From the IMG/VR virus record IMGVR_UViG_3300029258_003649: DNA of 64,000 nt; one strand, written 5' to 3'. The translations under genes and the position numbers were made by a program. This DNA comes from an uncultured virus (IMG/VR IMGVR_UViG_3300029258_003649) (Duplodnaviria > Heunggongvirae > Uroviricota > Caudoviricetes). Of this stretch, positions 44,450 through 63,013 are shown piece after piece. The number at the start of each line of letters is the position of its first letter. The stretch's first letter is position 1. The notes under the pieces were generated by a model, which was not told the DNA's origin, ran no database searches, and saw only the letters and a program-made list of their open reading frames with translations.

Positions 44450-44456
44450 ACCTCTC

Positions 44457-44494
44457 GGCCACTGCGCCCGCCTTCGGGCGGGCGTTGGCTTTTT
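44457..44494 (+). terminator. Rho-independent terminator with cUUCGg tetraloop
   Basis: cgcccgcc-ttcg-ggcgggcg then ttggcttttt. Confidence 0.75.
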
Positions 44495-44506
44495 CAGGAG
44501 GGACCG

Positions 44507-45010
44507 ATGGAAACGCTACGCAACGGACCCGAGCCGATCCGGGAGCCGGACTACAACTACTGGTGTTGGGTCCCCGATCGCTGCCTCTGCTTCCCCGACG
44601 GCATTCAGCCGGAGCTCGACGTCTACGATGGCGACACGCTCAAGCTCGTCATCGATCTGGGCCTCAACCAGTTCGTCAGCCCGATGTACTATCGGCTGTA
44701 CGGCATCCAGGCCCCCGAGATCCGACCACGGGCAACGCGGCAAGCTGGCATTGCTGCCAGGGACCATCTGATCTGGCTGATCAAGGAAACAGCGTTCTCC
44801 AAACAGAGCAACGGGTTCCCGACTCCTGGGTACCGGCTGCTCGTCCGGACGTACAAAAAACTACGTCCTAAGCGGGATTATCGACCCAAAGCGGTCAAAG
44901 GCAAGTACGGACGCTACCTGGTCGAGCTGTACGGCCAGCGAGGGCCCAACCTCATCAATCTCAATCAGAAGATGATCGAGGAAGGGAAAGCTGTTGCATA
45001 TTCCCCCTGA
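44507..45010 (+). CDS. Thermonuclease (SNase-like)
   Basis: YDGDT...IDLG, RLYGIQAPE, GKYGRYL, NLN..MIEEG.A. Confidence 0.9.
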   Translation: METLRNGPEPIREPDYNYWCWVPDRCLCFPDGIQPELDVYDGDTLKLVIDLGLNQFVSPMYYRLYGIQAPEIRPRATRQAGIAARDHLIWLIKETAFSKQSNGFPTPGYRLLVRTYKKLRPKRDYRPKAVKGKYGRYLVELYGQRGPNLINLNQKMIEEGKAVAYSP

Positions 45011-45061
45011 CAAACCCCAGGCGGATCAGCTATCATAGGATGACATACGGAGAACCCTGCA

Positions 45062-45589
45062 ATGCCAGTACAAGAAGGCCCCCACTACCGTTTCCAGAAG
45101 TACGAGTTCTGGGCGGAACGTGGCATGATCTCACTCATCGACACGGAAGCGGCCGCGGACAGCGCCCACGCTAACGATCCCGACCAGTTCCACTGGCGGA
45201 TTCCTCCGGGCCAGTTCATGAAGCGGGCGGTCAGTGCACTCATGCACGATCCCGAGAAGTATCCCAGCCAGCGCCGCGAGCTCAAGAAGATGCTCGAAGA
45301 CGCCGCGGCTGCGTGCAAGCTGGCCAAGGCGCAGGGCGACCCGACTGATCCGAGCGTCATCGAGGATGTGGTCAAGCACCAGCGGAAGCGCTCGATCGTG
45401 CTTCCCGGAGAGCTGCCGCCCATGCCCGGTATGCCGGAGCAGAAACACAAGATCCAGAATCATGGACGATCCGCTGGCCAGATCCTGGAGAAGGGCGTCG
45501 ACGTGGTGCCCGACTTCACCATCAGCCCGCAGGAAATGCTCACACCCAAACGTGCGGAGAAGCTCAGAGCTAAACCTACAGGGAGGTAG
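45062..45589 (+). CDS. Hypothetical protein
   Basis: Native codon usage; upstream CTGACA-18-TATCAT. Confidence 0.75.
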   Translation: MPVQEGPHYRFQKYEFWAERGMISLIDTEAAADSAHANDPDQFHWRIPPGQFMKRAVSALMHDPEKYPSQRRELKKMLEDAAAACKLAKAQGDPTDPSVIEDVVKHQRKRSIVLPGELPPMPGMPEQKHKIQNHGRSAGQILEKGVDVVPDFTISPQEMLTPKRAEKLRAKPTGR

Positions 45590-45591
45590 GA

Positions 45592-45924
45592 ATGAACTCC
45601 AAAGAAGCTTTCAAGATCGGGTTCCTTCACAAGTGCGCTGAGGATGGTCTCACCCCGGACGAGACCCTCGAACGCGTTCGCCACGCCACGCTGCTGGTCA
45701 AATCCGCTGGTTGGGGCATGCCTACCATGGCCGCTCTGACGCTCCTTGGTGCCACGCCGTTCCTGGTCGGTACGACCGGCGGCTACGCGCTGCAGCAGAT
45801 GCGTGAGAACACCGGGCTCGACGCCAAGGATATGAAGAAAAGGGAGGTGATTGCGGAGTATCGACGCGCCGTTGACAGGATGAGACGCTTGCAACAGCGG
45901 GTCGCGCCTGACGCAGTCTCGTAG
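45592..45924 (+). CDS. Small K-x-A motif protein with a hydrophobic segment
   Basis: AFKIGFLHKCAE, LVKSAG; GGAGG SD. Confidence 0.7.
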   Translation: MNSKEAFKIGFLHKCAEDGLTPDETLERVRHATLLVKSAGWGMPTMAALTLLGATPFLVGTTGGYALQQMRENTGLDAKDMKKREVIAEYRRAVDRMRRLQQRVAPDAVS

Positions 45925-45927
45925 TAG

Positions 45928-46326
45928 ATGCAACATAGTAAGTACCATGGTGAACAGCATGCACGGTACGGCGGAACACTACATTGGCCAGGCGCCAATG
46001 GTGTGCCGCTGCTTGGAGATGCTGCACCATCGCTGAAGCAGCACGAGATCGAACGGCTGACCGTCCGCGGCACGGCGTATGAGCGGCTGTTCGACATGTC
46101 GCAGGAAGAGGACCGCGAGTACTACAACTGGGTGCGAGACCGCATCCGCAACGGCCAGTTTGTGAAAGACCACGAGACTCGCAAATGGCCTGACGATTGG
46201 GAGTATCCAAAAATCTGGCTGGAGTGGACCCAACTGTACGTACAGGCCCCTCCACAAGTCCAAGGCATAGGGAGCAACGGGCATGGAAGCCACAGACAAT
46301 TCACGTTACGACGCCCTGATGGATAA
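45928..46326 (+). CDS. Hypothetical protein
   Basis: Operon position; globular composition. Confidence 0.65.
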   Translation: MQHSKYHGEQHARYGGTLHWPGANGVPLLGDAAPSLKQHEIERLTVRGTAYERLFDMSQEEDREYYNWVRDRIRNGQFVKDHETRKWPDDWEYPKIWLEWTQLYVQAPPQVQGIGSNGHGSHRQFTLRRPDG

Positions 46327-47185
46327 AGAAGCTGGGTTCGATGAGCTGAACCAAACGGCCAGAGAGCAGGCCAACCAGCGCATCTGGCAGATGATCCTGG
46401 GCGGAGCAGGCCTGGGACTCGGATTGCGGGGCGCGTTCGGTCTGGGCGAGCTGATGATGCCGCGTGGTCGCGGCTATCAGGCCAGTCCGACTTCGCAGAC
46501 CGTCGACCTGATGCTGCCGCAGCCGCAGGACGAGGAAGAGAAGTACGGGATGGACAAAGAGGCGATCGAGTGGAAGGGCCCTGGCGACCTCTTCGACCCG
46601 AAGTTCTACGCCCAGTTCACCCAGCCGCTCTTCGACAAAGACTGGGGACCCGTTGGCAACTACATCAAGGGCGACCAGTCAACCCACTACGGCGGCGTGC
46701 CCGCTACCTGGGCTGTCGGTGTTCCTGCCGGCGCGCTCGCACTGGCTGGCGGCTGGAAGGGCATGGACGCGCTCATGAAACGTCGGCGCGAAGCTGCTCT
46801 GGAAGCCGAGGAAGAGTCGTACAAGAACGAGTATCGCGAGATCCTCGAGAAGCTACAGAAGCGTGGCTCCGCCAACGACTTCCTCGAAGAGGAGCTTGAC
46901 GAGCTGGCTGACGCATACGCCGAGGCGCAGACGCACGAGAAGCAAGCGGCGTTTGGCTGGGACGAGCTGAAGCAGAAGGCCAGCAACATCGGCGGCTTCG
47001 GCACCGGCGCCTACATGGCTTACGCCACGCTGGCGGCGCTGCTCAGCGGCAAGCTCAGCTACGACTACTTCAAACGCCGCGGCCGTCGAAACGTCGCGCA
47101 AGAGGCAATGAAGCGCCGGAGTAAGGAACGCACTGGCGGCGTCGCTCCGATTCAGTTCCGTCCAGGTGCACAGGACCTTGTGTAA
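46283..47185 (+). CDS. Glycine-zipper virion-associated protein
   Basis: Three hydrophobic segments, each preceded by KEA/KEA/KQA; no Cys; TAATG-coupled to the RNAP gene. Confidence 0.7.
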   Translation: MEATDNSRYDALMDKEAGFDELNQTAREQANQRIWQMILGGAGLGLGLRGAFGLGELMMPRGRGYQASPTSQTVDLMLPQPQDEEEKYGMDKEAIEWKGPGDLFDPKFYAQFTQPLFDKDWGPVGNYIKGDQSTHYGGVPATWAVGVPAGALALAGGWKGMDALMKRRREAALEAEEESYKNEYREILEKLQKRGSANDFLEEELDELADAYAEAQTHEKQAAFGWDELKQKASNIGGFGTGAYMAYATLAALLSGKLSYDYFKRRGRRNVAQEAMKRRSKERTGGVAPIQFRPGAQDLV

Positions 47186-50100
47186 TGCCGAACCTCTATT
47201 CCTCGTTGGCGCCCGGGCCCGAAGGGGCCCGTGCCATGGGCGACGTGGCCGCCACCAGGACGGCCATCTTCGATAACGCGTTGTCGGCGGCTCAGCAATT
47301 CAAGCCGGCGACCAACCAGCGTTATATTATGGACGTCTCGGATGCTCGTTACGAGGGCCCGGAAGGATTTACAAAAGCCGATGAGAAGCGCGCAATCTTG
47401 GAGGGCCGCTCGCTGGGTCGCAGGCTGCGTGGAACCGTACGCCTCCGCACCAATGACGACAACCAAGAGGTTGTCGACCAGAAGCGCGTCACCCTCGCCC
47501 AGATCCCTTACATCACCCCACGTGGTACGTTCATTCTCAACGGGAACGAATACTCCCTCTCTCACCAAATGCGTCTTAGACCCGGTATCTTTACGCGGGT
47601 CAAAGAGTCGGGAGAACTCGAATCCCACGTCAATGTCGCTCGAGGTGTGGGACATAGGTATTTTCTAGACCCGGAGACCGGCGTGTTCCGGGCACAGTTC
47701 GGCCAAGCGCGGATGCCGCTCATGCCGATCCTCAAGGCGCTCGGCGCGACCGACTCGCAGCTGCGCGAAGCCTGGGGGAACGAGCTGTATGCAGCCAACG
47801 CTGCCAAGTCGGACCCCAAGACGCTCAAGAAGCTCTACAAGAAGCTGCTGCGCAAGGAACCGACCGACGACGAGAAGACCATGACCGAGGCCATCCGCGA
47901 CGTGTTCGCGCAGATGGAGGTCGACCCAGAGGTCAACAAACGCACGTTGGGTACCGACAGCAAGAACGTGGACGTTGCCACGATCCTCGCCGCGACGCGG
48001 AAGCTGCAGCGTGTGTTCAAGGACGAGGAAGGCCCCGACGATCGTGATGCCATGGCGTTCCAACGCGTCATCGGCCCGGAGGATCTGTTCGCCGAGCGGC
48101 TCACCAAGGGCGGTGCAGCGCTGCGGCAGGCCCTGTGGAAAGCGACCCTCCCCGGCAACCTCGGAAAGCTCGGCACCGGCCTGTTCGACAAGAGCGTTCG
48201 TGGCGCTCTGCTGGACTCCGGCCTCGGCAGCCCGCTCGAAGAGATCAACCCGGCTGAACTGTACGATCAGCGCGTGCGCGTGACCCGTATGGGCGAGGGC
48301 GGCATCCCAACCAGCGAGGCCGTGCCGGACGAAGCGCGTTCGGTGCAGCCGAGTCACATGGGCTTCATCGACCCGGTCCACACACCGGAGTCGGGCAAGA
48401 CCGGTATCGACGGGCGGATCGCCAACGCGACCCTCAAGGGCAAGGACGGGCGGCTGTACAGCCAGTTCTTCAACAACAAGACCGGCAAGGTCGAGTGGGT
48501 GACGCCCCAGGATCTGGCCGACGCAGTTGTCGCCTTCCCGGGCGAGCTGCAATCCGACGAGCCGTACGTGCGTGCCCAGGAGAAGGGCAAGCTGAAGTAC
48601 GTGCCGCGCGACAAAGTGGACTACCAGCTGAATCACATGACCGAAGCGTTCGGTCCGTTGGCTGGTATGGTCCCGATGAAACAGAACGCATTTGGCCAGC
48701 GCGTGTCTATGGGGAGTCGCATGCTTACGCAGGCGCTGCCACTGGTGAACGCCGAAGCACCGCTGGTTCGATCAGGGATGCCGGGCACCGAGGACTCCTA
48801 CGAGTCCCTGCTCGGCGAGGACATGGGTGCCGTAAGGAGCGGAGTCGATGGAACAATTCTCGAAATCACGCCGGATAACGTCAAGATCAGGGGAACGGAC
48901 CGGAAGATCCACAACGTCGAGCTCTACAACAACCACCCCTACAACCGAAAAACGTTCGTGCATAACACGCCCGTCGTTCGGCCAGGTGATCGCATCAAGG
49001 CTGGCCAACTTCTCGCAGGCTCTAACTTCACGGATAAAGAAGGAGTCACAGCTCTAGGGCTGAATGCGCGAATCGCCTACATGGCGTACAAGGGGCACAA
49101 CTTCGAGGACGCCATCGTGATCTCGGAGTCGTTCGCCAAGCGATCGGCGTCTGAGCACATGTACCAGAACACGCTCGACCTCGGCGAGGGCGTCAAGCAC
49201 AGCAAGAACGCGTTCCAGTCGATCTTCCCCGGCAAGTACGACCGGCGGGTCCTGGAAAAGTACGACGAAGACGGCGTCATCAAGCCCGGCCAGGAGGTCG
49301 ATCTGGATGAGCCGCTCGTCCTGGCAGTGAAACAGCGACAGACCGGTCCGCGTCTTGGCCGACGCAAAGCCTCCTGGTCCGACGCGTCGATCAAGTGGGA
49401 TCACCACGCAACCGGTACTGTCACTGACGTACACAAGGGCAAGAAGGGCATCTCCGTGGTGGTGAAGGCCACCAACCCGACCACCGTCGGCGACAAGTTC
49501 TCCGGGCGCTACGGCGACAAGGGCGTCGTAGCCAAGATCGTCGCGGACGAGGACATGCCGCGCGGCGCGGACGGAAAGCCCTACGAGATGCTGCTCAACC
49601 CGCTCGGCATCATCAGCCGCGGTAACCCCGCGCAGACGCTCGAAGCCAGCCTCGGCAAGATCGCGCAGCTGACCGGGAAGCCATACTCGATGGCCGACTT
49701 CGACAGCATCAGGGACGTGCGCGCGTACGTCGAGAAGGAGCTGCGTAAGCACGGCCTCAACAGCACAGAGGAAATTGAAGATCCGCGTACAGGCCGGACG
49801 ACGAAGGGTGTGCACGACGGTGCCCGCTTCATGATGAAGCTGCACCATACCGCTGAAGCCAAGCTGCAGGGGCGAGCGACAGGCGGGTACACAGCCGAAG
49901 GATCTCCGGCCAAGGGTGGTGAATCAGGCTCGAAGCGTGTTGGTATGCTCGAATTGAACGCGTTGCTTTCGCACGGCGCGTATCAGACTATCCGCGATGC
50001 CTCCGTCATCCGTGGACAGCGCAACGAGGATTACTGGCGTCAGCTGATGAGTGGGTACACGCCACCGGAGCCCGAAGTGCCGTTCATCTACAAAAAGTTC

Positions 50101-51558
50101 ATGGCCCAGCTGCAAGGCGCCGGCATTAATCCCGTCAAGCGCGGGAGTCGCCTGAACATCATGGCCATGACAGGCAAGGACGCTGTCGAACTGACTGGCA
50201 ATCGAGAGCTGCGCAACGTAGATACGGTTGACTGGCGTGTGTCCAAGCTCACCCCGGTCAAGGGCGGACTGTTCGACGAATCTCTCACCGGCGGGCACAA
50301 CGGCAACCGCTGGAGCTACATCAAGCTCCGCGAACCCATGCCGAACCCGGTGATGGAGGAACCGATCCGCCGCATTTTGGGTCTCACACAGAAGCAGTTC
50401 AAGAGCATCCTGGCAGGCCAAGAGTCGATGCCAGGGCGCGAAGGACTCACTGGCCCCAAGGGGCTCGCCAAAGTGCTCGAGGACATCAACCTCGACAAGG
50501 AGATCGAGCGAGCCCGCGCCGAGATGAACAGCGGTAAGAAGACCTACCGCGACAAGGCGATCCGTCGACTGCAGTTCCTCAAGTCAGCGAAGAAGCTCGG
50601 GCAGCACCCGAAGGACTGGATGATGGATCGAGTCCCGGTGCTGCCGCCGATGTTCCGCCCGGTCTCCATGATGGGGTCCGGTGGCCGGCTCGTCGACGAC
50701 GCGAACTTCCTCTACAAGGAGCTGTTCGACGCGAACGACAACCTGAAACAACTCACCCGCATGACGGATGACGTGTCCGACGAGCGGCTAGCGGTCTACG
50801 ACGCCTTCAAGGGTGTCACAGGCCTTGGCGATCCCATTCGCCCAGAGAACAAATCACAACCGGTCAAGGGCATCCTGAAGCACGTCTTCGGGACCAGCCC
50901 GAAGTTCGGCACCGTGCAGCGCAAGCTTCTCGGGTCCACCGTGGATCTCGTGGGCCGTGCTGCTATTTCGCCAGATCCCAACCTCGACATGGACCAGGTA
51001 GGAATCCCGGCCGACAAGGCGTGGACGCTGTATCAGCCGTTCGTCGTCCGTCGACTGGTCCGCCGCGGCATGAGCAAGATCAAGGCGATGGAGGCCGTCA
51101 AAGACCGTACCGATACAGCTATGCGTGAGCTGCAATCCGAGATGAAATCCCGTCCTGTCGTGATCAACCGAGCCCCGGTGTTGCACCGGTTCGGGGTCAT
51201 GGCGTTCTGGCCACAACTCACGTCCGCAAACACCTTGCAGATTCCGCCACTGATCGTGAAAGGCTTCAATGCCGACTTTGACGGCGACGCCATGCAGTTT
51301 CACCTGCCGTCGACCGACGAAGCCGTGCAGGAGGCGCAGGAGAAACTCCTGCCGTCGAAGAACCTGTTCGCGGTCAGCGACTTCGAAGTCATCCACGCCC
51401 CGTCGATGGAGTACGTCGGTGGATTGTGGGAGGCGACGACGCGGAACGACAAGAAGAAGCCCGTCCGAGTCTTCAACTCGAAGCTCGACGCGATCAAGGC
51501 TTACAAGCGCGGAGAGATTGGCGTAGGTCAACGAATCGAGATTCGCGAAGGACGCTAG
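47185..51558 (+). CDS. rpoBC: DNA-directed RNA polymerase, beta subunit fused to the N-terminal half of beta' (contains the catalytic motif)
   Basis: GTFILNG.E, TPES...G, NFEDAIVISE, GDKFSGRYGDKGVV, LNPLGIISR.N, KLHH; then GLFD, PVLPP.FRP, NRAPVLHR, FNADFDGD (51268-51288). Confidence 0.95.
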   Translation: MPNLYSSLAPGPEGARAMGDVAATRTAIFDNALSAAQQFKPATNQRYIMDVSDARYEGPEGFTKADEKRAILEGRSLGRRLRGTVRLRTNDDNQEVVDQKRVTLAQIPYITPRGTFILNGNEYSLSHQMRLRPGIFTRVKESGELESHVNVARGVGHRYFLDPETGVFRAQFGQARMPLMPILKALGATDSQLREAWGNELYAANAAKSDPKTLKKLYKKLLRKEPTDDEKTMTEAIRDVFAQMEVDPEVNKRTLGTDSKNVDVATILAATRKLQRVFKDEEGPDDRDAMAFQRVIGPEDLFAERLTKGGAALRQALWKATLPGNLGKLGTGLFDKSVRGALLDSGLGSPLEEINPAELYDQRVRVTRMGEGGIPTSEAVPDEARSVQPSHMGFIDPVHTPESGKTGIDGRIANATLKGKDGRLYSQFFNNKTGKVEWVTPQDLADAVVAFPGELQSDEPYVRAQEKGKLKYVPRDKVDYQLNHMTEAFGPLAGMVPMKQNAFGQRVSMGSRMLTQALPLVNAEAPLVRSGMPGTEDSYESLLGEDMGAVRSGVDGTILEITPDNVKIRGTDRKIHNVELYNNHPYNRKTFVHNTPVVRPGDRIKAGQLLAGSNFTDKEGVTALGLNARIAYMAYKGHNFEDAIVISESFAKRSASEHMYQNTLDLGEGVKHSKNAFQSIFPGKYDRRVLEKYDEDGVIKPGQEVDLDEPLVLAVKQRQTGPRLGRRKASWSDASIKWDHHATGTVTDVHKGKKGISVVVKATNPTTVGDKFSGRYGDKGVVAKIVADEDMPRGADGKPYEMLLNPLGIISRGNPAQTLEASLGKIAQLTGKPYSMADFDSIRDVRAYVEKELRKHGLNSTEEIEDPRTGRTTKGVHDGARFMMKLHHTAEAKLQGRATGGYTAEGSPAKGGESGSKRVGMLELNALLSHGAYQTIRDASVIRGQRNEDYWRQLMSGYTPPEPEVPFIYKKFMAQLQGAGINPVKRGSRLNIMAMTGKDAVELTGNRELRNVDTVDWRVSKLTPVKGGLFDESLTGGHNGNRWSYIKLREPMPNPVMEEPIRRILGLTQKQFKSILAGQESMPGREGLTGPKGLAKVLEDINLDKEIERARAEMNSGKKTYRDKAIRRLQFLKSAKKLGQHPKDWMMDRVPVLPPMFRPVSMMGSGGRLVDDANFLYKELFDANDNLKQLTRMTDDVSDERLAVYDAFKGVTGLGDPIRPENKSQPVKGILKHVFGTSPKFGTVQRKLLGSTVDLVGRAAISPDPNLDMDQVGIPADKAWTLYQPFVVRRLVRRGMSKIKAMEAVKDRTDTAMRELQSEMKSRPVVINRAPVLHRFGVMAFWPQLTSANTLQIPPLIVKGFNADFDGDAMQFHLPSTDEAVQEAQEKLLPSKNLFAVSDFEVIHAPSMEYVGGLWEATTRNDKKKPVRVFNSKLDAIKAYKRGEIGVGQRIEIREGR

Positions 51559-51579
51559 CAACACTAGCAAAAAATTCGC

Positions 51580-51601
51580 GCGACGACTGCGTCGTCGTTT
51601 T
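51580..51601 (+). terminator. Possible terminator after the RNAP large gene
   Basis: cgacgac-tgc-gtcgtcg-tttt. Confidence 0.45.
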
Positions 51602-51672
51602 GGATTGTAGAATCAACGCAACCCCTGTAAGCTACTAGTAGTGTCACATGAACAACGAACGGAGTCGCACTA

Positions 51673-52359
51673 ATGTCCCACGAAATGAACCCGATGCTTT
51701 TCGATCTTGCCGAATGGAGGTTGGCCGGTGAGAACGAGAAAAAGGCTTTCGTACCAGGTGATCCGGCGGCGGGCGGAATGCCGCCGGGAGCGATGCCGCC
51801 CGGAGGAGCTCCGCCGATGGATCCGATGGCAGGAGGCGGAGCACCGCCGATGGACCCGGCGATGGCAGGAGCCGCCCCGCCGATGGACCCGGCTGCAATG
51901 GCGGGAGCACCGCCAGCCGCTGCCCCTGCGCCTGCAGCTGGTGGAGCCCCAGGAGCCGGTGGAAAGCCCAAGATCGATCCTACCTTCATCTACATGGAGC
52001 TCTCCCGCGTTCGGAAGCTCTTGACCCACATGATGAAGCACACGGGCATCGACATGCCTCCCGACATTCTGGACGACGGTGCTGTGGCGATGGTCGCTCA
52101 AGGCCAGATGCCGCAGAGCGCGCCGCTCGGAGCCGGCGCCGAAGGTGCCCCGCCCGAGGGTGGCGGCGGCGGACCGGCGTTGCCGGGTATCGGCGGGAAC
52201 GCGCCCGTCAGCCCGATTGAAGCCCCGTCCGGGCCTGAGAAAGCAGGAGCCGATGCGTTGTCGATGTTCCGCGGTCCAGTCGACGGGGAGCGAGAGGACG
52301 CGTCGCAGTTGCGGCTCGATGCGATCTCCGCCATGTCCCGAAGCCTGCACCGTAGGTAA
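51673..52359 (+). CDS. Pro/Gly/Met-rich K-x-A protein
   Basis: EKKAFVPG; PPMDP repeats; no Cys. Confidence 0.75.
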   Translation: MSHEMNPMLFDLAEWRLAGENEKKAFVPGDPAAGGMPPGAMPPGGAPPMDPMAGGGAPPMDPAMAGAAPPMDPAAMAGAPPAAAPAPAAGGAPGAGGKPKIDPTFIYMELSRVRKLLTHMMKHTGIDMPPDILDDGAVAMVAQGQMPQSAPLGAGAEGAPPEGGGGGPALPGIGGNAPVSPIEAPSGPEKAGADALSMFRGPVDGEREDASQLRLDAISAMSRSLHRR

Positions 52360-52361
52360 TC

Positions 52362-52649
52362 ATGATTGTTGAACTCCACAACAAGTTGGGCAATCCGCAG
52401 CGCATCGAAGCGACTCGCGTTGTACTGCGGTGCCCAATCAACGGCGTCATTGCTGTGGCCCTGGAACCGACTCCAGGGCACCAGTACATCATCGATCGCG
52501 GCGACGGCGACGAGGTCATGAACAAGATGCTCTCTCAGTTGGGCATCAACGAGACCGTCATCAGCGATCATATCGACAAGGATTCCTTCGCGGCGCCGCC
52601 TAAGGGCAGCCGCCTCTGGAAGCCTGGCGAGGATCCTCCGCATGCTTAA
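52362..52649 (+). CDS. Hypothetical protein
   Basis: Between 51673 and beta'-C, overlapping its start. Confidence 0.7.
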   Translation: MIVELHNKLGNPQRIEATRVVLRCPINGVIAVALEPTPGHQYIIDRGDGDEVMNKMLSQLGINETVISDHIDKDSFAAPPKGSRLWKPGEDPPHA

Positions 52650-54528
52650 GACGACCATTGGACAACTGCTGGTCAACGAGGCCCTGCCGAAAGAGATGCG
52701 TGACTACACACGCACCTTGGACGGTAAGGGCGTCAAGAAGTTGCTCCGTGAGATCGCAGAGAAGGATCCGGACAAGTACCGCGAGATCTCGAAGAAGCTC
52801 GCCGATGTCGGCCGTGACGCGGCGTATACAACCGGCGGTCAGTCGTTCAGCATCGAGCACCTGCGTCCGACCAAGTCCGTACTGGCGTCTCGCCAGCGCC
52901 TGAACCGGCGCATCCGCGAGATCATGTCGAAGGACAACTGGGACGAGGACAAGAAGGAAGCCAAGATCATCGAGGCGACCGCCGCCGAGCACGAGAAGCT
53001 GCTCGATGGCGTGTACGCTGACGCCAAAGAGCTGGGCAACCCGCTCGCCGACCAGGTCGCATCGGGTGCCCGAGGCAACAAAATGACCCTGAAGCGTTTG
53101 ATCGGCGGCGACATGCTCTACGTCGACCACCACGACCACACGATCCCGTTTCCGGTGCAACAGAGCTACGGCGAGGGTCTCGACCCCGCTTCGTACTGGG
53201 CGGGCACGTACGGAGCCCGGAAAGGCATCATCGACGAGAAATTTGCCACGATGGACGTCGGATACTTCTCGAAACAGCTGAATCAGCTCACTCATCGGCT
53301 CATGGTGCTCGCCGACGACGCTGAAGAGGACAAAACGGCCAAAAAGAGCCGTGTTTTGCGTGGTTTGCCGGTCAAAACCGACGATCCGGACAACGAAGGG
53401 GCACTTTTGGCCTCAGATATGGGCGGATACAAGCGAAATACAGTTCTGACGCCCAAAATCCTTGAAGATTTGGCCGATCAGGGCATGGAACGCATCCTTG
53501 TGCGTTCTCCGACGGTCGCCGGCCCGTCAAGCGGCGTATACGCCCGTGACGTGGGCGTACGCGAGCGCGGAGACCTGCCCCCGGTTGGAGACATGGTTGG
53601 CATCGCAGCCGCACAGGCGCTCTCTGAGAAGCTCACACAGGGTGCCCTGAGTTCGAAGCACTCCGGCGGCGTGAAGGGCGAAACACAGTCCGTGACGGGC
53701 TTCCAGCACGTCAATCAGCTCGTGCAGGTGCCAAAAACGTTCAAAGGTGGCGCTGCGCACGCCCAAATGGACGGAAAAGTGACCGATATCACAGAAGCGC
53801 CCGCCGGTGGCCAGTACGTGACCATCAGCGGCGAGCGGCACTTCGTTTTGCCCGGGTTCGGCCTCAAGGTGAAGCGTGGCGACAACGTCGAAGCCGGCGA
53901 CGTGATCAGCGACGGCATCCCGAATCCGTCCGAAATCGTCAAGCACAAGGGCATCGGTGAGGGTCGGCGCTACTTCATCGACATCTTTGCCGATGCGTAC
54001 CGTGCCGGTAAGATGTATGCCAATCGCAGGAACATCGAACTGCTGTCTCGGAGCCTGATCGACCACGTCGAGATGACCGACGAGGACGACGATCACGTCC
54101 CCGGCGATGTGATCCCGTACCAGCAGCTCGAGGCCGGGTGGCAACCCCGTGACGGGATGCGTTCCGTAGCCCCCAAACTGGGCGTCGGCAAGTACCTGGA
54201 GAGCCCGGTGCTGCACTACACGGTCGGCACCCAGATTAAGCCGTCAATGCTACCAGTTTTGGACGAGTTCGGTGTCAAGAACATCGATGTCCACGACGAA
54301 GCTCCGCCTTTTCGACCGTACATGGTCCGGGCGCAGGCTTCGGTCGGACACGACCCGGACCCGCTCGTCCGCTTCCTAGGAAGTGATCAGAAGAAGAACC
54401 TGATGTCCGCGGTCCATCGCGGTGCCGTCTCGGACACAAAGAGCACCAGCTTCGTACCGTCGCTGGCCGCCGGAGAAGATTTTGCCAAGAACTGGCCTCA
54501 GAGCGTACTGAAGCCTCCAAAAACCTAG
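52642..54528 (+). CDS. rpoC: DNA-directed RNA polymerase beta' C-terminal half (bridge helix, trigger loop)
   Basis: TTIGQLL.N, SGARG, EGL...Y...GARKG..D...T...GY, VRSP, VGIAAAQALSE.LTQ...KHSGG, V..GD.VEAGD. Confidence 0.93.
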   Translation: MLKTTIGQLLVNEALPKEMRDYTRTLDGKGVKKLLREIAEKDPDKYREISKKLADVGRDAAYTTGGQSFSIEHLRPTKSVLASRQRLNRRIREIMSKDNWDEDKKEAKIIEATAAEHEKLLDGVYADAKELGNPLADQVASGARGNKMTLKRLIGGDMLYVDHHDHTIPFPVQQSYGEGLDPASYWAGTYGARKGIIDEKFATMDVGYFSKQLNQLTHRLMVLADDAEEDKTAKKSRVLRGLPVKTDDPDNEGALLASDMGGYKRNTVLTPKILEDLADQGMERILVRSPTVAGPSSGVYARDVGVRERGDLPPVGDMVGIAAAQALSEKLTQGALSSKHSGGVKGETQSVTGFQHVNQLVQVPKTFKGGAAHAQMDGKVTDITEAPAGGQYVTISGERHFVLPGFGLKVKRGDNVEAGDVISDGIPNPSEIVKHKGIGEGRRYFIDIFADAYRAGKMYANRRNIELLSRSLIDHVEMTDEDDDHVPGDVIPYQQLEAGWQPRDGMRSVAPKLGVGKYLESPVLHYTVGTQIKPSMLPVLDEFGVKNIDVHDEAPPFRPYMVRAQASVGHDPDPLVRFLGSDQKKNLMSAVHRGAVSDTKSTSFVPSLAAGEDFAKNWPQSVLKPPKT

Positions 54529-54618
54529 ACATTGCAGTATTGCAGTCAGATCCAGTAGGATATAAAGCATATCTTAGGACGGAACCTGGGTCGCTCCCAT
54601 TGACAAGGACGTCTGCAC

Positions 54619-56991
54619 ATGAGTACAAACCTACGACAGATGGGTGGGGTAAGCTACTGGCGCGGTGTCTGCCGCTCGCTCCAACGCTCCGACTTTCTCA
54701 AACAGGCGGACATGGGTGGAGAATCCGGCGACAGCCAGAGCTTCGAGAGTGCCTTCAGCAACTTGGCACACGCCTACCTCAAAGACAAGGCTCCACAGCT
54801 GCTCGACTTCATGCTGGGCTTCCAGCTTCTCGAGAAAAATGAGGACAACGATCGGGCTGTCGGTGTCTTTGGCTTCAAGGTGGGGCCGCAACTCATTTAT
54901 GCTCCGGTGTTCTTCCTGAACGGCGAACTCCGCGGGCACGAGCTCATGTACCTCAAGGAGAGCGACACGTTCGTTCCCCTCAAAGAGAACTGGGTCAACT
55001 ACGTGCTGAACCGCAAGCCGAACGTCATCGGCGAAGAGGTCACACGCAACCTGAGCATGCTCGGCGTCAGTCGCCCATCGCTCGACCAGTTCCGCGAATC
55101 ACCGAACAAGTACGCGTCGGATCAATGGCTCGACGCCGGTATGCCCGGCCTCATGCACGCGCTCGGTCGCGTCGCTAAGCGTGAGCCGAAAGCGCCGGAG
55201 CTGATCAAGGCCAGTGCCGCGGTCGCTACGCGGTTCCTCCAGGTCCTTGACTCCACGCCGCAGCTGGCTCGCCCGATCGTCGAAAACTACGGTCGGGAGC
55301 TTGTCGACGAAGCGATCGGCGTTGCCAAGACCGCCAGCACCGTCTGTCCGACGGAACCGCCGCGCAAGAAACGAGACATCCAAGTCGGTGGTAGCATCTT
55401 CCGCGAGAAGTCCGCGATGGACCAAGCGAAAGAAGCCGATCCGATCAACACTGGCAGCCTCCGCATTTGGACATACAACGGCACGAAAGCATGCCGCAGG
55501 GGGCTGACCGAAAAGCAGGCCGAGCAACTGCAACGCGACGGCGTCTACATCAAGGACGACCGCTACGACAAGTCGAAGGTCTACAAGGTCCAGGAGCCGA
55601 TGACGCTCCAGAACCCGGACGAGACTGGACACTACGACGTCCTCTGCAAGCCGGACTCCTTCGAGAAGTGCCTGTACATCCACGCCCCGCACGGCCCGCG
55701 TGGCCGCAAGCCGAACGGCGTCCTGGTACGGGTCGGCGGCGACAAGAAGGCCTATACCGAAGTGCACCCCGGCGACATCTACGTCATCGAGAAGTACTCC
55801 GGTAGCGACTACAACGACTGGTTCAACGGACTGCCGAACGCGGACAGCCTGCAGGTCGGAGCGACCTATGCGCTGCTCACCACGACCGGACACGGTACGA
55901 GCGTGTTCGAGGTCGAGGACACTCTGCCCTCCGAGGGCGAGGAAAAGCGGTACAAGGTCCGCTGGCGTCATTACGGTAACGTCCGGCGTCGGGCCGACAA
56001 GCTGATCCCGTCGCCGAGCCACGGCCACTACGAGTGGGACAACACCAGCAGCGTCGAACAGATTGTGCTGAACCGCATCAAGGGCCACAAGCTCGTGTCG
56101 CGGTTGGACGAGCTGCTCGTACCGCCCGGCGCCAAGGCACTGAAGATTGCCGACCCGCCGAAGGACGAGGACGGCGACAGCATCCCCGGGTGCTGCAACC
56201 CGTGCGCGGACTCGAGCGACCCGCCCGCGCTTGTGCCAGGCGACCACGTCGACCTCCAGCTGGGCATCTACAAGACGTCCAGCGCGCTGGAAGTCTTCAA
56301 CAACGGCACCGAAGCGATCGTCAACGGCAGGCACTCGACGCCCAAGGCTGCGCTCATCTCGCTCGTCCGCGACTACGGATGCGCCGAGAAGACCGCTAAG
56401 GACGTGTTGAAGAACGCCCAGCTGCAGCGAGGCGTGAAGTACCGGATCAAGTACGCCCAGCCGTACGATCTGCTCTCCAGCGCCCCGTCGGCTCCGGCGA
56501 TCCCGGAACAGTACGAGTCCACCGACTTCATCATGGGCTCCGGCCTGCCGACCAACTACGGCATGGAAGAGGAGTACCCGGTCGACGACCTGCGTGGCGG
56601 ACGCCGCCAGCGCGGGCAGATGGCCGAGCCGCCCGAGCCGATGATGGGGCAGCAACTCATGGAAGCAGCCCAGACAGGCCAGAAGGAAGTGCTCGACACT
56701 TCGCTCCTGTCGAACCTGCTCAAGGGCTCGCAGAACGAGACTCTGATCGATCGGCACCTGCCGGACCTGATGAAGGGTCTGGACAGCATGGGCCGGCTGC
56801 TGTTCAACATGTACTGGCATCACGACAAATTTGAGGACAGATACGGCAGCAACAATCTGCCCGAGCTGGAAGATGCCATGCGCAACTCGTTCGAGAGCCT
56901 GGGTGACGTGACCCTGGAACTCAAGCAGAAAACAATCGAGCCCTACCCGGACGAGGGAGTCGACGTCGACTTCGGCGAGGGTGAGGTCTAA
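54619..56991 (+). CDS. Large K-x-A motif protein, putative virion structural/head protein
   Basis: KQA, KYA, KTA, KSA, KTS, KYA motifs; lies between the RNAP and prohead protease genes. Confidence 0.7.
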   Translation: MSTNLRQMGGVSYWRGVCRSLQRSDFLKQADMGGESGDSQSFESAFSNLAHAYLKDKAPQLLDFMLGFQLLEKNEDNDRAVGVFGFKVGPQLIYAPVFFLNGELRGHELMYLKESDTFVPLKENWVNYVLNRKPNVIGEEVTRNLSMLGVSRPSLDQFRESPNKYASDQWLDAGMPGLMHALGRVAKREPKAPELIKASAAVATRFLQVLDSTPQLARPIVENYGRELVDEAIGVAKTASTVCPTEPPRKKRDIQVGGSIFREKSAMDQAKEADPINTGSLRIWTYNGTKACRRGLTEKQAEQLQRDGVYIKDDRYDKSKVYKVQEPMTLQNPDETGHYDVLCKPDSFEKCLYIHAPHGPRGRKPNGVLVRVGGDKKAYTEVHPGDIYVIEKYSGSDYNDWFNGLPNADSLQVGATYALLTTTGHGTSVFEVEDTLPSEGEEKRYKVRWRHYGNVRRRADKLIPSPSHGHYEWDNTSSVEQIVLNRIKGHKLVSRLDELLVPPGAKALKIADPPKDEDGDSIPGCCNPCADSSDPPALVPGDHVDLQLGIYKTSSALEVFNNGTEAIVNGRHSTPKAALISLVRDYGCAEKTAKDVLKNAQLQRGVKYRIKYAQPYDLLSSAPSAPAIPEQYESTDFIMGSGLPTNYGMEEEYPVDDLRGGRRQRGQMAEPPEPMMGQQLMEAAQTGQKEVLDTSLLSNLLKGSQNETLIDRHLPDLMKGLDSMGRLLFNMYWHHDKFEDRYGSNNLPELEDAMRNSFESLGDVTLELKQKTIEPYPDEGVDVDFGEGEV

Positions 56992-57005
56992 GCAAAGGTA
57001 GCCAC

Positions 57006-57464
57006 ATGCATATCTACAAGAGAGAACTGTCCGTCGCGAACGGCGAAGCACTGGTCATGCCAGCCGGTGAGACCTCGATGTGCTTCCGTATTGGGTACCC
57101 GCAAGAGGGTTCGATCAAGCGTCTACAAGTCTGCCAGGTCGCCGATGACCCGGTCCAGGTAGGCTACAGCGTCAGGCTGCTCGATCGGGCTGTCTGCGAG
57201 CTGGGCCCCGAAGCGTCGCACTCGGCAGAAATCGACCCGATCTGCTTCAACACGGCCAAGATCATCCCCGACGACCAGCTCCCGGCCAAGGCCGCGGGCG
57301 AATCGCTGGAGTTCTACAGCCCCACGGGGTACGCATACCGCAATCGGGTGGGCTCGTACTCGGTCCCGGACCGCGCGGTCTACCTGCAGCTGACCGTCGA
57401 CGATGACGGCCAGGATACCAACTGGGAAGTTGCGATCACCGGGGAAGTAGGCAACGAGGACTAG
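57006..57464 (+). CDS. Hypothetical beta-rich protein
   Basis: Native codon usage. Confidence 0.7.
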   Translation: MHIYKRELSVANGEALVMPAGETSMCFRIGYPQEGSIKRLQVCQVADDPVQVGYSVRLLDRAVCELGPEASHSAEIDPICFNTAKIIPDDQLPAKAAGESLEFYSPTGYAYRNRVGSYSVPDRAVYLQLTVDDDGQDTNWEVAITGEVGNED

Positions 57465-57468
57465 AAAA

Positions 57469-57484: not shown

Positions 57485-57499
57485 AATTCAGAGGTGTAG

Positions 57500-58465
57500 A
57501 TGTCGATTCTGGTAAACAGACCCGATAACAAGAGGCGTCCCGCAGACTGGCGGTGGCAGCGGGCTGGCGAACTCGCCAACGGCTCGCGCCTCATCGCTGG
57601 ACGGGATGACAGCATCGTAAGGGAGCTGACGAAGTTCCGCCGACTCCTGGACCGCTGTGAGACGGACGAAGACCGGCTCGCGGCGCTGGATGCCGATCCC
57701 GTGCTGTTTTCGGCCTATTTGATTTACGATGCCAACGAAACCCCCACTGAGACTCGATGGGAGCTCGAGGCTCGCCTGTTGGCCCGTGAGTCCTTCGAAA
57801 GCATTGGTCAGAAGATCCACGAAGACGTGGATGTGATCAAGCGCTACGAGGAGGCCTTCTTCGATGTGATGAGTCGTATTGATCATCCAGGCTTGATCAC
57901 CCACATCATTGTCGGCAAAGCTGTGCAGACCGGCCTTGCGGAGCGGCAATACGATTTGCTGTGGAAGCTGTTTGGATACCACTGCGGCCCGCTAGTCTTG
58001 GACGCCTTTATCTACAAGTTCAACGCGCCGACGCGCCCGGAGACCCCAAGTCAGGTCTCAGCGCATTGGGGCGACGACACGAAGGAAGTGATCAAAGTGA
58101 AGGCCAACGTGGCCGCGCGTACCATCCAGATCAACGGCTACACTGCCGAAGGCATCCTGAACATGTTCCACAACATGGCCGCACTCGAGCAACAGGCTGG
58201 TGCGGCGGGTGGCGGCAGCGAGCTGATGGCTGAGAACGTCCAGGCGATGCAGAACTGCATCCCGTGGATCAAGTACATCGAAGGCGTCTCGCCGAAGATG
58301 ATTGGTCGTTCCACCGAGTTCGAGAAGGATGGTATGACCCTGCGATCACACGAGTTGATGATGCTCTCGATGGGCATCGAGCCGGAAGGCTTGGAATATC
58401 TTACCACCGACATTGGATACCCAGACGGAGATGACCAAAATGCAAAGGCTCACGAAGGAGAGTGA
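57500..58465 (+). CDS. Hypothetical helical protein
   Basis: GAGGT SD; 321 aa. Confidence 0.75.
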   Translation: MSILVNRPDNKRRPADWRWQRAGELANGSRLIAGRDDSIVRELTKFRRLLDRCETDEDRLAALDADPVLFSAYLIYDANETPTETRWELEARLLARESFESIGQKIHEDVDVIKRYEEAFFDVMSRIDHPGLITHIIVGKAVQTGLAERQYDLLWKLFGYHCGPLVLDAFIYKFNAPTRPETPSQVSAHWGDDTKEVIKVKANVAARTIQINGYTAEGILNMFHNMAALEQQAGAAGGGSELMAENVQAMQNCIPWIKYIEGVSPKMIGRSTEFEKDGMTLRSHELMMLSMGIEPEGLEYLTTDIGYPDGDDQNAKAHEGE

Positions 58466-60101
58466 GCAGCGGATCAGCAACGCTCTCGCAAAGGTCACAG
58501 ATTTGACCAACTCCGGAACGAATCCGGACGATGCGATTGTTAAGGTTGCGACCGCCGCAAAACTGCCGGCTGGCCATGTCAATCTCATGGTGCGGGCGTT
58601 CAACAACGGCCGAAGCCTCGGCCATATCCGCGAACACGAGACGCTCACCGAAAAGGCTGCGGCGTTCCCGCTGGCTGACGGTAGGAAGATCCTTGAACGG
58701 ATGTTCCCGTCGGAGGTCAAGACGGCTGCCGAGGAAGCCCACGGTGTGTCCATCTCGGACGACTACAACATGTCGCCTGCTGGCTGGCTCAAGCGCCGGG
58801 CAGAGGCTGCGCGCACTGTGTCGCTGGTGAAGTCCGCCGAAGAGCTGGAGATCGAGACCAAGGCGCCAGGAGGCGGCGTCATCGAAGTTGAGATCGAAGA
58901 CGGCGAAGTGGAGGTCGAAAGGGAGTCCGCCGAAGAAGAAGCTGCCGAAGAAGAGGCAGAGGAAAAAGAGGCAGCGTACCCGGCATACCCGTACCGCCAG
59001 GAGAAGAAGGCCCTGTCGGCCATGCACGATCTCCGGCGCGAGCACCAGCAGCGCAAGGACGCTGCGATCAAATCGGCGTACGACGTGACGAACGGCGTCG
59101 AGAAGCTGGCCAACTACTTCCGCCGGTTTGACAGCCGCCCGATCAACGAGGTCTGGGCCAATGCCGGAGCACGCTACGGACAGACGGGCCGCGGCCTGGT
59201 CGAGAAGTCCACCGTGATGTTCAAGCAGGCGTACGCCCAACCATCCCAGGTGACCCACGATGTCGACTGGGACGAGGCGCCCTACTCGCTGATCAAGTCC
59301 GCTGTCGACGCGATCGCCCGCTTCAACGACACCAAGAAGGCCCTGGCCGACTTCGAAGCCGCTCTCCCGGAGAAGCGCGCGGAGACTCTGCGCCCTTTTG
59401 CACCGGACCGTCCAAACGTGATCACAGGCTCAGTATGGGACAATCAATCGCAGACTAAGTCTGCGTCGTTCATGGGTCTGACAATGGCTGGCGCGTTGGG
59501 CGGTACCGCAAAGGGTCTTGCTGAGAAGTACGCCCCGGAGACGCGCGAGGAGCTGATCCAGAAGCACCTCAAGTCGATTGCCGATCCGGGCCACGAAGAC
59601 CACCTGCGAGCCATCCGTGCCCAGGCCATGATCCACGAGATGATGTCCGCCGACCCGGTCATCAGCGGCTACGACCACTCCGACGTGATCGACGCCTACA
59701 ACCACCTGGCCGAGGTCGCGCCGCGCGCCATGCAGCACCGGGTGATGGCCCAGGGCCTGATCCGCAAGTACCTGGAGCAGGCATCGGCGATCGACCCGTT
59801 CGACGTCGAGCAGGCGCTCAAGATCGAGGGACAGGTCGCCGACCGCGACATGCCGCAACAGCTGGCCAACGTCGGCCGTATGGGTGTGTCCCGCGAGCTC
59901 GGCCCGCCGAACCCGCTGCCGACCGGTGCGCAAATGCCGGTGCTGCCGTCTGACGTCAGCAGCGCGATGCGCCCGTCGTTCCAGCACTTGACGCCGGGAC
60001 AGGATCGGGAGAATCGAGATCTAATTACTGAGCAGAAGAAGCAACTTGCTGAGCAGAAGAAGCAGCTCGACGCGCTCAGAAAGCCCAAGCCCAATCCGTA
60101 A
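58440..60101 (+). CDS. K-x-A motif virion-associated protein
   Basis: KTA, KSA, KEA, KQA, KSA motifs; acidic stretch; no Cys. Confidence 0.72.
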   Translation: MQRLTKESEQRISNALAKVTDLTNSGTNPDDAIVKVATAAKLPAGHVNLMVRAFNNGRSLGHIREHETLTEKAAAFPLADGRKILERMFPSEVKTAAEEAHGVSISDDYNMSPAGWLKRRAEAARTVSLVKSAEELEIETKAPGGGVIEVEIEDGEVEVERESAEEEAAEEEAEEKEAAYPAYPYRQEKKALSAMHDLRREHQQRKDAAIKSAYDVTNGVEKLANYFRRFDSRPINEVWANAGARYGQTGRGLVEKSTVMFKQAYAQPSQVTHDVDWDEAPYSLIKSAVDAIARFNDTKKALADFEAALPEKRAETLRPFAPDRPNVITGSVWDNQSQTKSASFMGLTMAGALGGTAKGLAEKYAPETREELIQKHLKSIADPGHEDHLRAIRAQAMIHEMMSADPVISGYDHSDVIDAYNHLAEVAPRAMQHRVMAQGLIRKYLEQASAIDPFDVEQALKIEGQVADRDMPQQLANVGRMGVSRELGPPNPLPTGAQMPVLPSDVSSAMRPSFQHLTPGQDRENRDLITEQKKQLAEQKKQLDALRKPKPNP

Positions 60102-61504: not shown

Positions 61505-63013
61505 ATGGCACTCACGAAACTTTTGACTCCTGGATCGTACGACTTTCACGCTCCGGTGGCACAGCAGATCAAGACGGGCCGCGACGGCAGGCTCCGTGGA
61601 TCTGATATGGATGAGTTCGTGAAACGCGCGTCGGTGCAGTTCATCGACAAGGTGGCCAGCATGCAGCTTGGCCCTGGGGAGGTCCCTGTCCACTTGCTAG
61701 CCGTCGGTGCCCAAGAGTACTACGGAGCCAACCGCAACGGCGACGGCTTCCGTGAGGAGGTCTTGCAGGCATATCACCCGACTTTCCAGAAATTCGCCCG
61801 CTGGTACCGCGATCATCAGAACAAGGACGTCTCCAAGGGACGTGGTATCATCAAAGCTTCCGCGTATAATGGCGATATGCGGCGCGTGGAGCTGATCGTT
61901 GCGCTCAACGGCACCAAGGAAGCTGCCGATCGCAACGGCGGGCTTGTCGCTGACGAAGAGCTCGAGAAACTGGCACGAGGCGAAGACATCCCGGTGTCGA
62001 TGGCCTGCCGTGTCAGCCATGACGTCTGTTCTGGCTGTGGCAACCATGCCAAGAGCCGCAAAGAATACTGTGGACCGGAGATGTGCAAATATGGCGGATG
62101 CAGAGATAACCTCGCCAAGACTTTCGATGACGGACATACGCTCCATGTCGACAACCCAGATCCATGCTTCTTCGACATCTCGAAGGTCTTTCGCCCGGCA
62201 GATCGCATCGCTTACACGCTTGGTAAATGTGCTGCAGCAGAAGACTACCAAGAAATGCTCAAAGCCGCCGCAGACACCTACGGATCTGAGCAAAGTGCTG
62301 CAGCGCTTGCGGAGCGACTTGGGGTTACCCCGCCTCTCTGGATCCTCACAGACGGCCCCTGGAGTGACCCGCGTGTCGTTGGACAACTCAAGGTGGCAAA
62401 CTACCTGATCCAGCAAGAGAACGCACTGGAGGTCGACGGGAGCCCAATTGCGCAAGATCGTGCGTGCCAGCCGGTTGTGCAACCGCTCCGGATCGACGCT
62501 CCTGACGTCCGCAAGGGTCCGTACAAGCTGGCCCACGTCGTGACAGCACTGGCAGCAGAGAAGTGCATGCTTCCTGTTGATTCGTTCATCGCCATGCTGA
62601 CCGGCGAACACAACACCAAAACAGCAGCCGCAGCGGACGCCGTTGCGGACCGCTTGCCAGGCGTGTACAATCGTCTGGCATCTGATCCGAGGCTCGAAGA
62701 GGACCTCCGTCAGAACCCCTATTTGCCCGGTGGTCCAGCGCCAAAACGCGTCAGGCATTGGGTGCTGAAACACGCCGGCGAATGGTCGCTGGCTCGCGAC
62801 CGCGTCATCGAGCGGCTCCAACTGTCCGTTTTGCGGCAGCCGAAGGCGCCTGACCCCCGTCGGTCGATGACCAAGATAGCTATGGTCGACAGTGCTGAGG
62901 AGCTGGCCAAGCAGTACGCCTTGTACCAGCTTGGCTTCCTCCAAGCCCATGCGGCTGATCCAGACGCCGCATTCATGCAGGAGATGGCCGTCAGATCAAA
63001 CTTTGTGAGGTAA
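61505..63013 (+). CDS. Putative prohead (capsid maturation) protease with Zn-finger insertion
   Basis: NRNGDGF, YRDHQN (His), VSMAC (Ser), DVCSGCGN...YC...C, NPDPCFFDIS.V..PAD; upstream of a scaffold-like gene. Confidence 0.75.
   Translation: MALTKLLTPGSYDFHAPVAQQIKTGRDGRLRGSDMDEFVKRASVQFIDKVASMQLGPGEVPVHLLAVGAQEYYGANRNGDGFREEVLQAYHPTFQKFARWYRDHQNKDVSKGRGIIKASAYNGDMRRVELIVALNGTKEAADRNGGLVADEELEKLARGEDIPVSMACRVSHDVCSGCGNHAKSRKEYCGPEMCKYGGCRDNLAKTFDDGHTLHVDNPDPCFFDISKVFRPADRIAYTLGKCAAAEDYQEMLKAAADTYGSEQSAAALAERLGVTPPLWILTDGPWSDPRVVGQLKVANYLIQQENALEVDGSPIAQDRACQPVVQPLRIDAPDVRKGPYKLAHVVTALAAEKCMLPVDSFIAMLTGEHNTKTAAAADAVADRLPGVYNRLASDPRLEEDLRQNPYLPGGPAPKRVRHWVLKHAGEWSLARDRVIERLQLSVLRQPKAPDPRRSMTKIAMVDSAEELAKQYALYQLGFLQAHAADPDAAFMQEMAVRSNFVR

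Follow-up and report, generated by a model that had tools for sequence, protein, structure and literature searches.

One of the closest described systems to the RNA polymerase (RNAP) considered here is that of Salmonella phage Arash. A total of 116 proteins were found by mass spectrometry in sucrose-gradient particles of this phage (PMC10585845). The RNAP subunit gp206 was the most detected of these (3516 spectra), and gp216 (1210), the gp217 helicase (1148), and the gp10 sigma factor (467) were also present (PMC10585845). The authors of that report propose early transcription by the particle RNAP. The enzyme in question is a relative of the Arash RNAP and is encoded on 64,000 nucleotides of DNA from an uncultured virus (IMG/VR record IMGVR_UViG_3300029258_003649); this whole stretch is called the window. 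The predicted proteins of the RNAP core and of its putative sigma factor show a conserved suppression of cysteine (Cys) that is nearly specific to the holoenzyme and extends to the unlinked sigma gene.

Other described virion RNAPs are of different types. The virion RNAP (vRNAP) of phage N4 is the single-subunit, T7-like enzyme of a podovirus and is unrelated in sequence and fold to the RNAP of the window, which has a two-barrel bacterial-type core with sigma and is found in a relative of a myovirus (Arash, PMC10585845). The role proposed for N4 vRNAP, which is to be injected and to transcribe early genes, would by analogy match the one considered here. An initial annotation of the window had taken as its premise that this enzyme is Cys-free and that this has been linked to injection. 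This premise is sound, with 0 Cys in the 3500 amino acids (aa) of N4 vRNAP and with suppression published for the Schitoviridae. In that family, ejection proteins contain 0.00075% and 0.0055% Cys compared with 0.865% for the proteome, and passage through the disulfide-forming periplasm is cited as selecting against Cys (PMC11445570). A version of the idea that is based on tail passage is stated in PMC3915230.

The virion RNAP of phiKZ/AR9-type phages is a multisubunit two-barrel enzyme that is packaged and injected (PMC7598289). The phiKZ-type phages have two RNAP sets with much-split subunits and no sigma (PMC7824862). The window phage and its relatives differ from these in having one set, a beta-beta' fusion, and sigma factors. 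Deeply branching bacterial-type RNAPs have also been reported from mReC, a group of RNAP-encoding Caudovirales that are, as here, uncultured large metagenomic phages (PMC7481178). Membership of mReC calls for a T4-like capsid protein in addition to NADxDGD and to COG0085 and COG0086 matches that each span at least 800 aa. The words cysteine, zinc, virion, and packaged do not occur in the main text of that report, where fused and fusion are used only of crAssphage.

A two-chain RNAP core and its relatives

The RNAP is encoded by two open reading frames (ORFs).

47185..51558, + strand: fused RNAP subunit, 1457 aa; beta at about residues 1-985 and N-terminal beta' at about residues 985-1457, including NADFDGD; 0 Cys
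52642..54528, + strand: C-terminal beta', 628 aa; Rpb1_5, with the bridge-helix and trigger-loop region; 0 Cys

The 1457-aa ORF has Pfam matches to Rpb2_6 (PF00562, E 1.6e-54, residues 573-903), Rpb2_3, and Rpb1_2 (PF00623, E 2.3e-26). Rpb1_1 reached only 29.5 bits, under its cut-off of 39.7. The Mg-binding beta' motif NADFDGD is present in the translation. The 628-aa ORF matches Rpb1_5 (PF04998, E 1.6e-20). In a PDB search, residues 985-1457 of the long ORF match solved bacterial beta' chains (E 3e-57), and residues 2-492 of the short ORF also match solved beta' chains (E 8e-37). The two pieces abut on PDB chain 8k60_D, where one match ends at 628 and the other starts at 659. Thus, the long ORF is beta with the N-terminal part of beta', and the short ORF is the rest of beta'. 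Together, the two predicted chains make up the whole catalytic core of a minimal bacterial-type two-barrel RNAP. An AlphaFold2 model of the 628-aa chain, made from an alignment of 57 sequences, has a mean predicted local distance difference test (pLDDT) of 83.4 and a predicted template modeling score (pTM) of 0.72.

This enzyme resembles the E. coli core in its conserved-domain order and in having the NADFDGD motif, clamp helices, and an Rpb1_5 region. Unlike E. coli beta and beta', which have 22 Cys, the window enzyme has no zinc-binding domain, no second zinc site, and no Cys. It is also about 660 residues shorter overall, with beta and beta' fused and beta' split. Fusions of beta and beta' are also present in Helicobacter and Wolbachia.

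When the fused subunit was searched by tblastn against 50,697 phage records, 59 were matched. Coverage of at least 80% was found in four records only, those of Salmonella phage Arash and Vibrio phages D69, D181, and D148, at about 32% identity. Arash gp206 (OQ632216) is a full-length match with 100% coverage, and gp216 matches the 628-aa ORF. The Arash-type layout, a beta-beta'N fusion and a separate beta'C gene, is shared by the window phage and D69. In Arash, the RNAP genes lie on the structural-gene strand directly after the portal, and the gp217 helicase gene (141261-142679; 0 Cys in 472 aa) lies directly after beta'C. No homologue of gp217 was found in the window by tblastn, and Arash homologues are detectable in this way for four of the 64 window ORFs. 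Beta and beta' homologues with 25-29% identity are also present in Yersinia phage YerA41, which likewise splits beta', and in Rhizobium phage RHph_Y65. These two RNAPs retain both zinc sites and have ordinary Cys (16 in 1127 aa for RHph_Y65 beta'; 7/556, 5/518, and 4/924 for the YerA41 subunits). Their genes adjoin those for DNA polymerase and helicase.

A second IMG/VR record, G002 (161,817 bp), is from the same phage and matches window positions 37982-63018 at 99.97%. The window and G002 were joined as a composite phage of 199,798 bp. Some related records, rated complete, are as long as 204-229 kb. Arash is the nearest cultured relative of the phage, which is itself uncultured and would have a genome of about 200-220 kb. 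A megablast search of window positions 44000-58000 against the phage collection found no near-identical DNA.

Suppression of cysteine and loss of both zinc sites

The initial annotation had found no Cys in either RNAP subunit, and the translations agree, with zero in 1457 aa and zero in 628 aa. Greedy selection of non-overlapping + strand ORFs across the window gives 19,954 residues, of which 224 (1.12%) are Cys. At this rate, the chance of finding none in 2085 residues is about 6e-11 by our own arithmetic. A count of Cys in homologues, which had been proposed as a check, gives the same picture. Among the best 120 of the 1199 homologues found for the fused subunit (54-100% identity), 99 have no Cys, nine have one, and 12 have six or more. 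All of these 12 contain inserts and are 1791-1906 aa long. The 108 homologues without inteins contain 9 Cys in 158,169 residues (0.006%). So few in spite of a divergence of up to 46% is a sign of purifying selection against Cys, and the lack of Cys is a matter of selection and not of chance. The beta'C gene is similar. Among the best 120 of the 2923 homologues found, 107 have no Cys, and the pooled level is 0.059% with inteins included. Homologues with at least three Cys are 758-1001 aa long.

By their ends, the inserts are inteins, the Cys of which leave at splicing. For the 20 that were mapped, the first residue is Cys in 18 and Ser in two, and the last residue is Asn in all 20. After the insert (+1) comes Ser or Thr in 19 cases and Cys in the other, and the spliced enzyme would therefore stay Cys-free. 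The exteins contain no Cys in 17 of the 20 cases; the remaining three hold 1, 1, and 3. Insertion points fall after residues 148, 383, 402, 589, 772, 812, 903, and 1242 of the 1457-aa ORF and after residues 209 and 336 of the 628-aa ORF, which gives about ten sites across both genes. Some of the RNAP inteins of relatives contain LAGLIDADG homing-endonuclease domains.

The Cys ligands of E. coli beta' are residues 70, 72, 85, and 88 in the first zinc site and 814, 888, 895, and 898 in the second. The corresponding places in the window are these.

50263..50328, + strand: site of the deleted beta' zinc-binding domain, residues 1027-1048, GGLFDESLTG-GHNG-NRWSYIKL (aligned by MAFFT to E. coli beta' and to five relatives)
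53503..53556, + strand: former second zinc site, RSPTVAGPSSGVYARDVG, with A293, Y300, and D303 at the columns of E. coli C888, C895, and C898

About 32 residues are missing at the zinc-binding domain compared with E. coli beta', and GHNG is left in their place. A matching gap is present in four close relatives and in Arash gp206. The PDB alignment is weak over the N-terminal beta' stretch that contains the deletion site. Since the deletion is also found in Arash, the domain was lost before these lineages split. At the second site, the column of the fourth ligand, E. coli C814, is occupied by A227 (53320-53322) of the 628-aa ORF. In all four close relatives aligned, the columns read A/D/G/Y, G, Y, and D, and all four Cys are replaced. 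Both zinc-site claims of the initial annotation, a reduced first domain and a replaced second site, were thus exact in coordinates and in motif string. The AlphaFold2 model has pLDDT of 94/87/85 per ten-residue block at residues 281-310 of the 628-aa chain, and this region is therefore predicted to fold without metal.

The Cys contents of the two nearest described enzymes are as follows.

Arash: gp206, 1 Cys in 1525 aa; gp216, 4 Cys in 606 aa, at 232, 284, 291, and 294
D69: fused subunit, 2 Cys in 1527 aa; beta'C, 4 Cys in 609 aa, at 232, 284, 291, and 294

The four positions in Arash gp216 align with the four ligands of the second zinc site. In both Arash and D69, these are all the Cys of the beta'C chain, whereas the window clade has replaced all four. 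The alignments indicate that Arash and D69 have retained just the second-zinc Cys and that the window lineage later replaced those as well.

The core would work with a 254-aa sigma factor similar to Arash gp10, encoded elsewhere among baseplate and sheath genes. Its ORF (G002 102856-103620), flanked by baseplate-like and sheath-like genes, scores 27.1 bits against Sigma70_r3, which is above the cut-off. It also matches PHROG 351 and has 31% identity with Arash gp10 (E 1e-17). It was found in all four relatives searched. Like gp10, it has no Cys, and none is present in 93 of 94 database homologues (2 Cys in 22,661 residues, 0.009%). Thus, the zinc-binding domain deletion and a gp10-like Cys-free sigma are common to the window phage and Arash. 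These levels (fused subunit, 0.006%; sigma, 0.009%) are of like order to those of the Schitoviridae ejection proteins.

When beta'N (985-1457) was folded with the 254-aa sigma, the ipSAE score was 0.72, compared with 0.00 for the best of three controls. Of 157 solved complexes, 116 score as high, as do 2 of 215 mismatched pairs; these counts are rough (own alignments were used). The runs had at least 56% contact agreement and a partner pLDDT of at least 70. The predicted interface lies at the beta' clamp helices, residues 1168-1206. Solved sigma-core complexes exist, and the score is therefore read as likeness and not as binding. A second sigma factor, a 280-aa ORF with regions 2 and 4, was rejected as the core partner. 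It contains 4 Cys, and a search of the four relatives found no homologue of it. Arash also possesses a second sigma, gp196, with 3 Cys, which is not named in the main text of PMC10585845.

Cys was pooled for the ORFs of the composite phage of at least 150 aa that have orthologues in at least two of four genomes (G003, G004, G005, and Arash). Of the 39 such ORFs, four are at or below 0.2% pooled Cys, none is at 0.2-0.5%, and 35 are at 0.5% or above. Besides both RNAP chains, this lowest group contains the sigma and a 562-aa ORF. The genome-wide level is 1.1-1.8%. Among the G002 ORFs of at least 200 aa, 10 of 94 have no Cys and form a separate mode. A general poverty of Cys in the region or in virion proteins was tried as an explanation and rejected. 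The neighboring 790-aa ORF, similar to Arash gp218, has 0.96%, and a sheath-like ORF (11 Cys in 666 aa) and a baseplate-wedge-like ORF (5 in 516 aa) keep theirs. The purge is therefore a property of neither the region nor virion proteins in general. Tail-fibre-like ORFs are Cys-poor, with 0 in 572 aa and 1 in 770 aa. Other enzymes have normal or high Cys, such as endonuclease VII (8 in 131 aa) and a SPASM protein (13 in 483).

Probable packaging and ejection, and other explanations

It is held with moderate confidence that the core and sigma are packaged, ejected, and used to transcribe the early genes, and that the purge of Cys serves passage and refolding. The core and sigma would be made late and packed into the head. 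They would be ejected with the DNA via the contractile tail and the periplasm. The chains would then refold and transcribe the first phage genes without the host RNA polymerase. Having neither Cys nor zinc sites, they could cross an oxidising, disulfide-forming compartment in an unfolded state and could refold without metal insertion. The chances are about even for the fuller claim, that a sigma-dependent holoenzyme of beta-beta'N, beta'C, and sigma works without zinc or Cys and evolved so for ejection through a contractile tail.

A single PF00562 match is present in each of the five related records, four of which are at least 90% complete; a very divergent second set could escape Pfam. This points to one RNAP set, unlike the two of phiKZ. 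No 9-mer was found in five or more of the 81 intergenic gaps of the composite genome when a common early promoter was searched for. The initial annotation had proposed an injected RNAP. Its premise and its reading of the two chains stood, and packaging and ejection are likely from the conserved suppression (which includes sigma and is nearly holoenzyme-specific), the detection of the homologues in Arash virions, the one RNAP set, and the Schitoviridae parallel. In addition, structural genes are neighbors of the RNAP genes.

Several observations weigh against injection and leave that step of the proposal less firm. In phiKZ, 16 of the 2614 aa (0.61%) are Cys in what we take to be the virion RNAP, compared with 33 of 2850 (1.16%) in the presumed non-virion RNAP; in the record notes, the four virion subunits are marked as structural proteins of the head. 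Freedom from Cys is therefore not required of an injected multisubunit RNAP. The phiKZ trend, lower in the virion enzyme, is in the expected direction, and its beta'N-like gp180 has 2 Cys, so no four-Cys zinc-binding domain is possible there. Arash gp216 and D69 0264 retain the four Cys of the second zinc site. The AR9 non-virion RNAP is also without the zinc-binding domain, which the phiKZ non-virion RNAP keeps (PMC7618050), and loss of this domain alone is therefore no mark of a virion enzyme. The Arash preparation included ribonucleotide reductases and primase, and its authors raise the carry-over of abundant proteins (PMC10585845). The YerA41 RNAP subunits are products of early genes and yet are reported as particle-associated among 63 proteins. 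This RNAP bears zinc sites. Thus, either particle mass spectrometry is unspecific, which would weaken the Arash evidence, or Cys and zinc are no bar to packaging. With a sole RNAP set, this enzyme could act in later transcription as well. Suppression of Cys is therefore neither a necessary nor a fully specific signature of injection.

The same observations could be read as those of a non-virion enzyme, made after infection for middle or late transcription, that lost Cys and zinc under some other intracellular pressure. The Cys of injected phiKZ vRNAP, the AR9 non-virion RNAP without the domain, and the many enzymes listed from Arash and YerA41 particles would all be in keeping with this, and a sole RNAP set must be useful after infection too. 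Such an enzyme is nevertheless considered unlikely, with suppression in just four of 39 conserved ORFs, ordinary or high Cys in the other phage enzymes, RNAP genes within what appear to be structural blocks, gp206 as the top protein of the Arash particle data, and a degree of suppression on a par with published ejection proteins. On this unlikely reading, the pressure could be stress of an oxidative or thiol-reactive kind, a host or phage factor attacking Zn-Cys sites, or independence of the zinc supply.

It is less likely still that the enzyme is packaged but has lost its Cys and zinc for long storage in oxygenated water, with passage through the tail or periplasm not the cause. Suppression of Cys by itself fits storage and passage alike, the relatives are from environmental metagenomes, and tail-fibre-like ORFs likewise have few Cys or none. 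Against this, the sheath-like and baseplate-like proteins have kept theirs although they are exposed on the surface, and Arash and D69 keep the thiolate site for the second zinc. Passage is also the published reasoning for N4-like phages (PMC11445570, PMC3915230). Drift, in which the few Cys left after loss of the zinc sites vanished by chance, has very little to commend it. E. coli beta has merely 7 Cys in 1342 aa, and a small enzyme could lose such a number. The count of 9 in 158,169 residues, in homologues that have diverged by as much as 46%, is not what drift would leave, and beta'C and the unlinked sigma gene are likewise suppressed in a genome with 1.1-1.8% Cys. The Ser or Thr at +1 of 19 of 20 inteins also argues against it. 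On these homologue counts, drift is excluded in practice. Packaging and ejection thus remain the preferred explanation.

Neighboring genes and significance

Other ORFs near the RNAP genes are listed here.

45928..46326, + strand: 132-aa ORF just upstream of the RNAP; conserved, with orthologues at 61 of 75 related loci, of which 41 lack Cys; 0.30% Cys when pooled
51673..52359, + strand: 228-aa Pro/Ala/Gly-rich ORF between the RNAP genes; 0 Cys; poorly conserved, orthologues at 3 of 75 related loci
52362..52649, + strand: 95-aa ORF between the RNAP genes; 1 Cys; poorly conserved, orthologues at 5 of 75 related loci
54619..56991, + strand: 790-aa ORF, Arash gp218-like (tblastn to Arash 142735-144558); orthologues pooled 0.96% Cys (75 loci)
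58413..60101, + strand: 562-aa ORF, the sole further conserved Cys-suppressed ORF; candidate co-ejected protein
61505..63013, + strand: 502-aa ORF, Arash gp222-like (tblastn, 38% identity over 216 aa); normal Cys

The 132-aa ORF is a candidate accessory protein and has no Pfam or PHROG match. No Pfam or PHROG family was matched by the 228-aa ORF. It and the 95-aa ORF were rejected as extra core subunits on account of their few orthologues, and the 228-aa ORF is probably not a core subunit. Arash gp218 and gp222 are annotated as structural proteins, and their window homologues are downstream of the RNAP. Identities tried for the 562-aa ORF were rejected, as leads from the ESM Atlas were at chance level and a tape-measure cluster reached 0.78, below the tool's bar.

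Other large ORFs of the window are also poor in Cys. A 1211-aa multidomain ORF (34946-38581, +) has 1 Cys and matches polynucleotide-kinase/phosphatase-like, LigD 3'-phosphoesterase, and ATP-dependent ligase families. Cys is absent from its homologues, which are of 1350 aa in G003 and 1138 aa in G005. It may be a co-packaged end-healing and sealing enzyme. Two RNA ligases have been reported in Arash particles (PMC10585845). Three adjacent ORFs (703-2646, 2671-4350, and 4360-7731, +) encode 647, 559, and 1123 aa with 0, 1, and 0 Cys. These have no Pfam or PHROG match, and the 1123-aa ORF has a partial homologue in G003 that is likewise Cys-free. A 508-aa ORF (32528-34054, +) has InPase and 2H-phosphoesterase ('Swiss Army Knife') domains, a module type found in large injected polyvalent proteins. 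It also matches the PHROGs for minor head protein, virion structural protein, and DarB-like antirestriction.

The window contains further genes of other kinds. The endonuclease VII gene (63015-63410, +; 131 aa, 8 Cys) coincides with a stretch, 63019-63408, that does not align to the otherwise 99.97% identical G002. This is a variable segment and may be mobile. A possible modification cassette lies at 18940-22316 (+), where a SPASM-domain (radical-SAM maturase-like) ORF with 13 Cys comes after two ORFs of the sulfotransferase family. A ThyX thymidylate synthase and a GroES-like co-chaperonin are encoded at 14090-16127 (+), in a part with lower GC (57-59% compared with about 61% elsewhere in the window).

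Literature searches, together with word searches within individual papers, found no mention of Cys suppression or zinc loss in this RNAP clade. Cys-free virion RNAPs are already known from N4. What would be new is a virion RNAP of the multisubunit, sigma-dependent type with the signature of the unrelated N4 ejection proteins. The N-terminal beta' zinc-binding domain has been described as common to all multisubunit RNAPs (PMC7618050), and this clade has neither zinc site and no thiol. With more than 1000 database relatives of the fused subunit, it is a clean model for asking what the zinc sites do. If the present account is true, the beta' zinc sites are dispensable for assembly and catalysis. 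A small Cys-free RNAP of two chains without a metal centre may also be convenient for biochemistry.

If the purge marks ejection, the injected proteins of uncultured phages would be predictable from sequence alone. The signature would pick four of the 39 conserved ORFs here and would also point to the 1211-aa end-healing/ligase-like ORF. It would further mean that a myovirus can deliver a whole sigma-holoenzyme and that the phage is independent of host transcription from the first minute.

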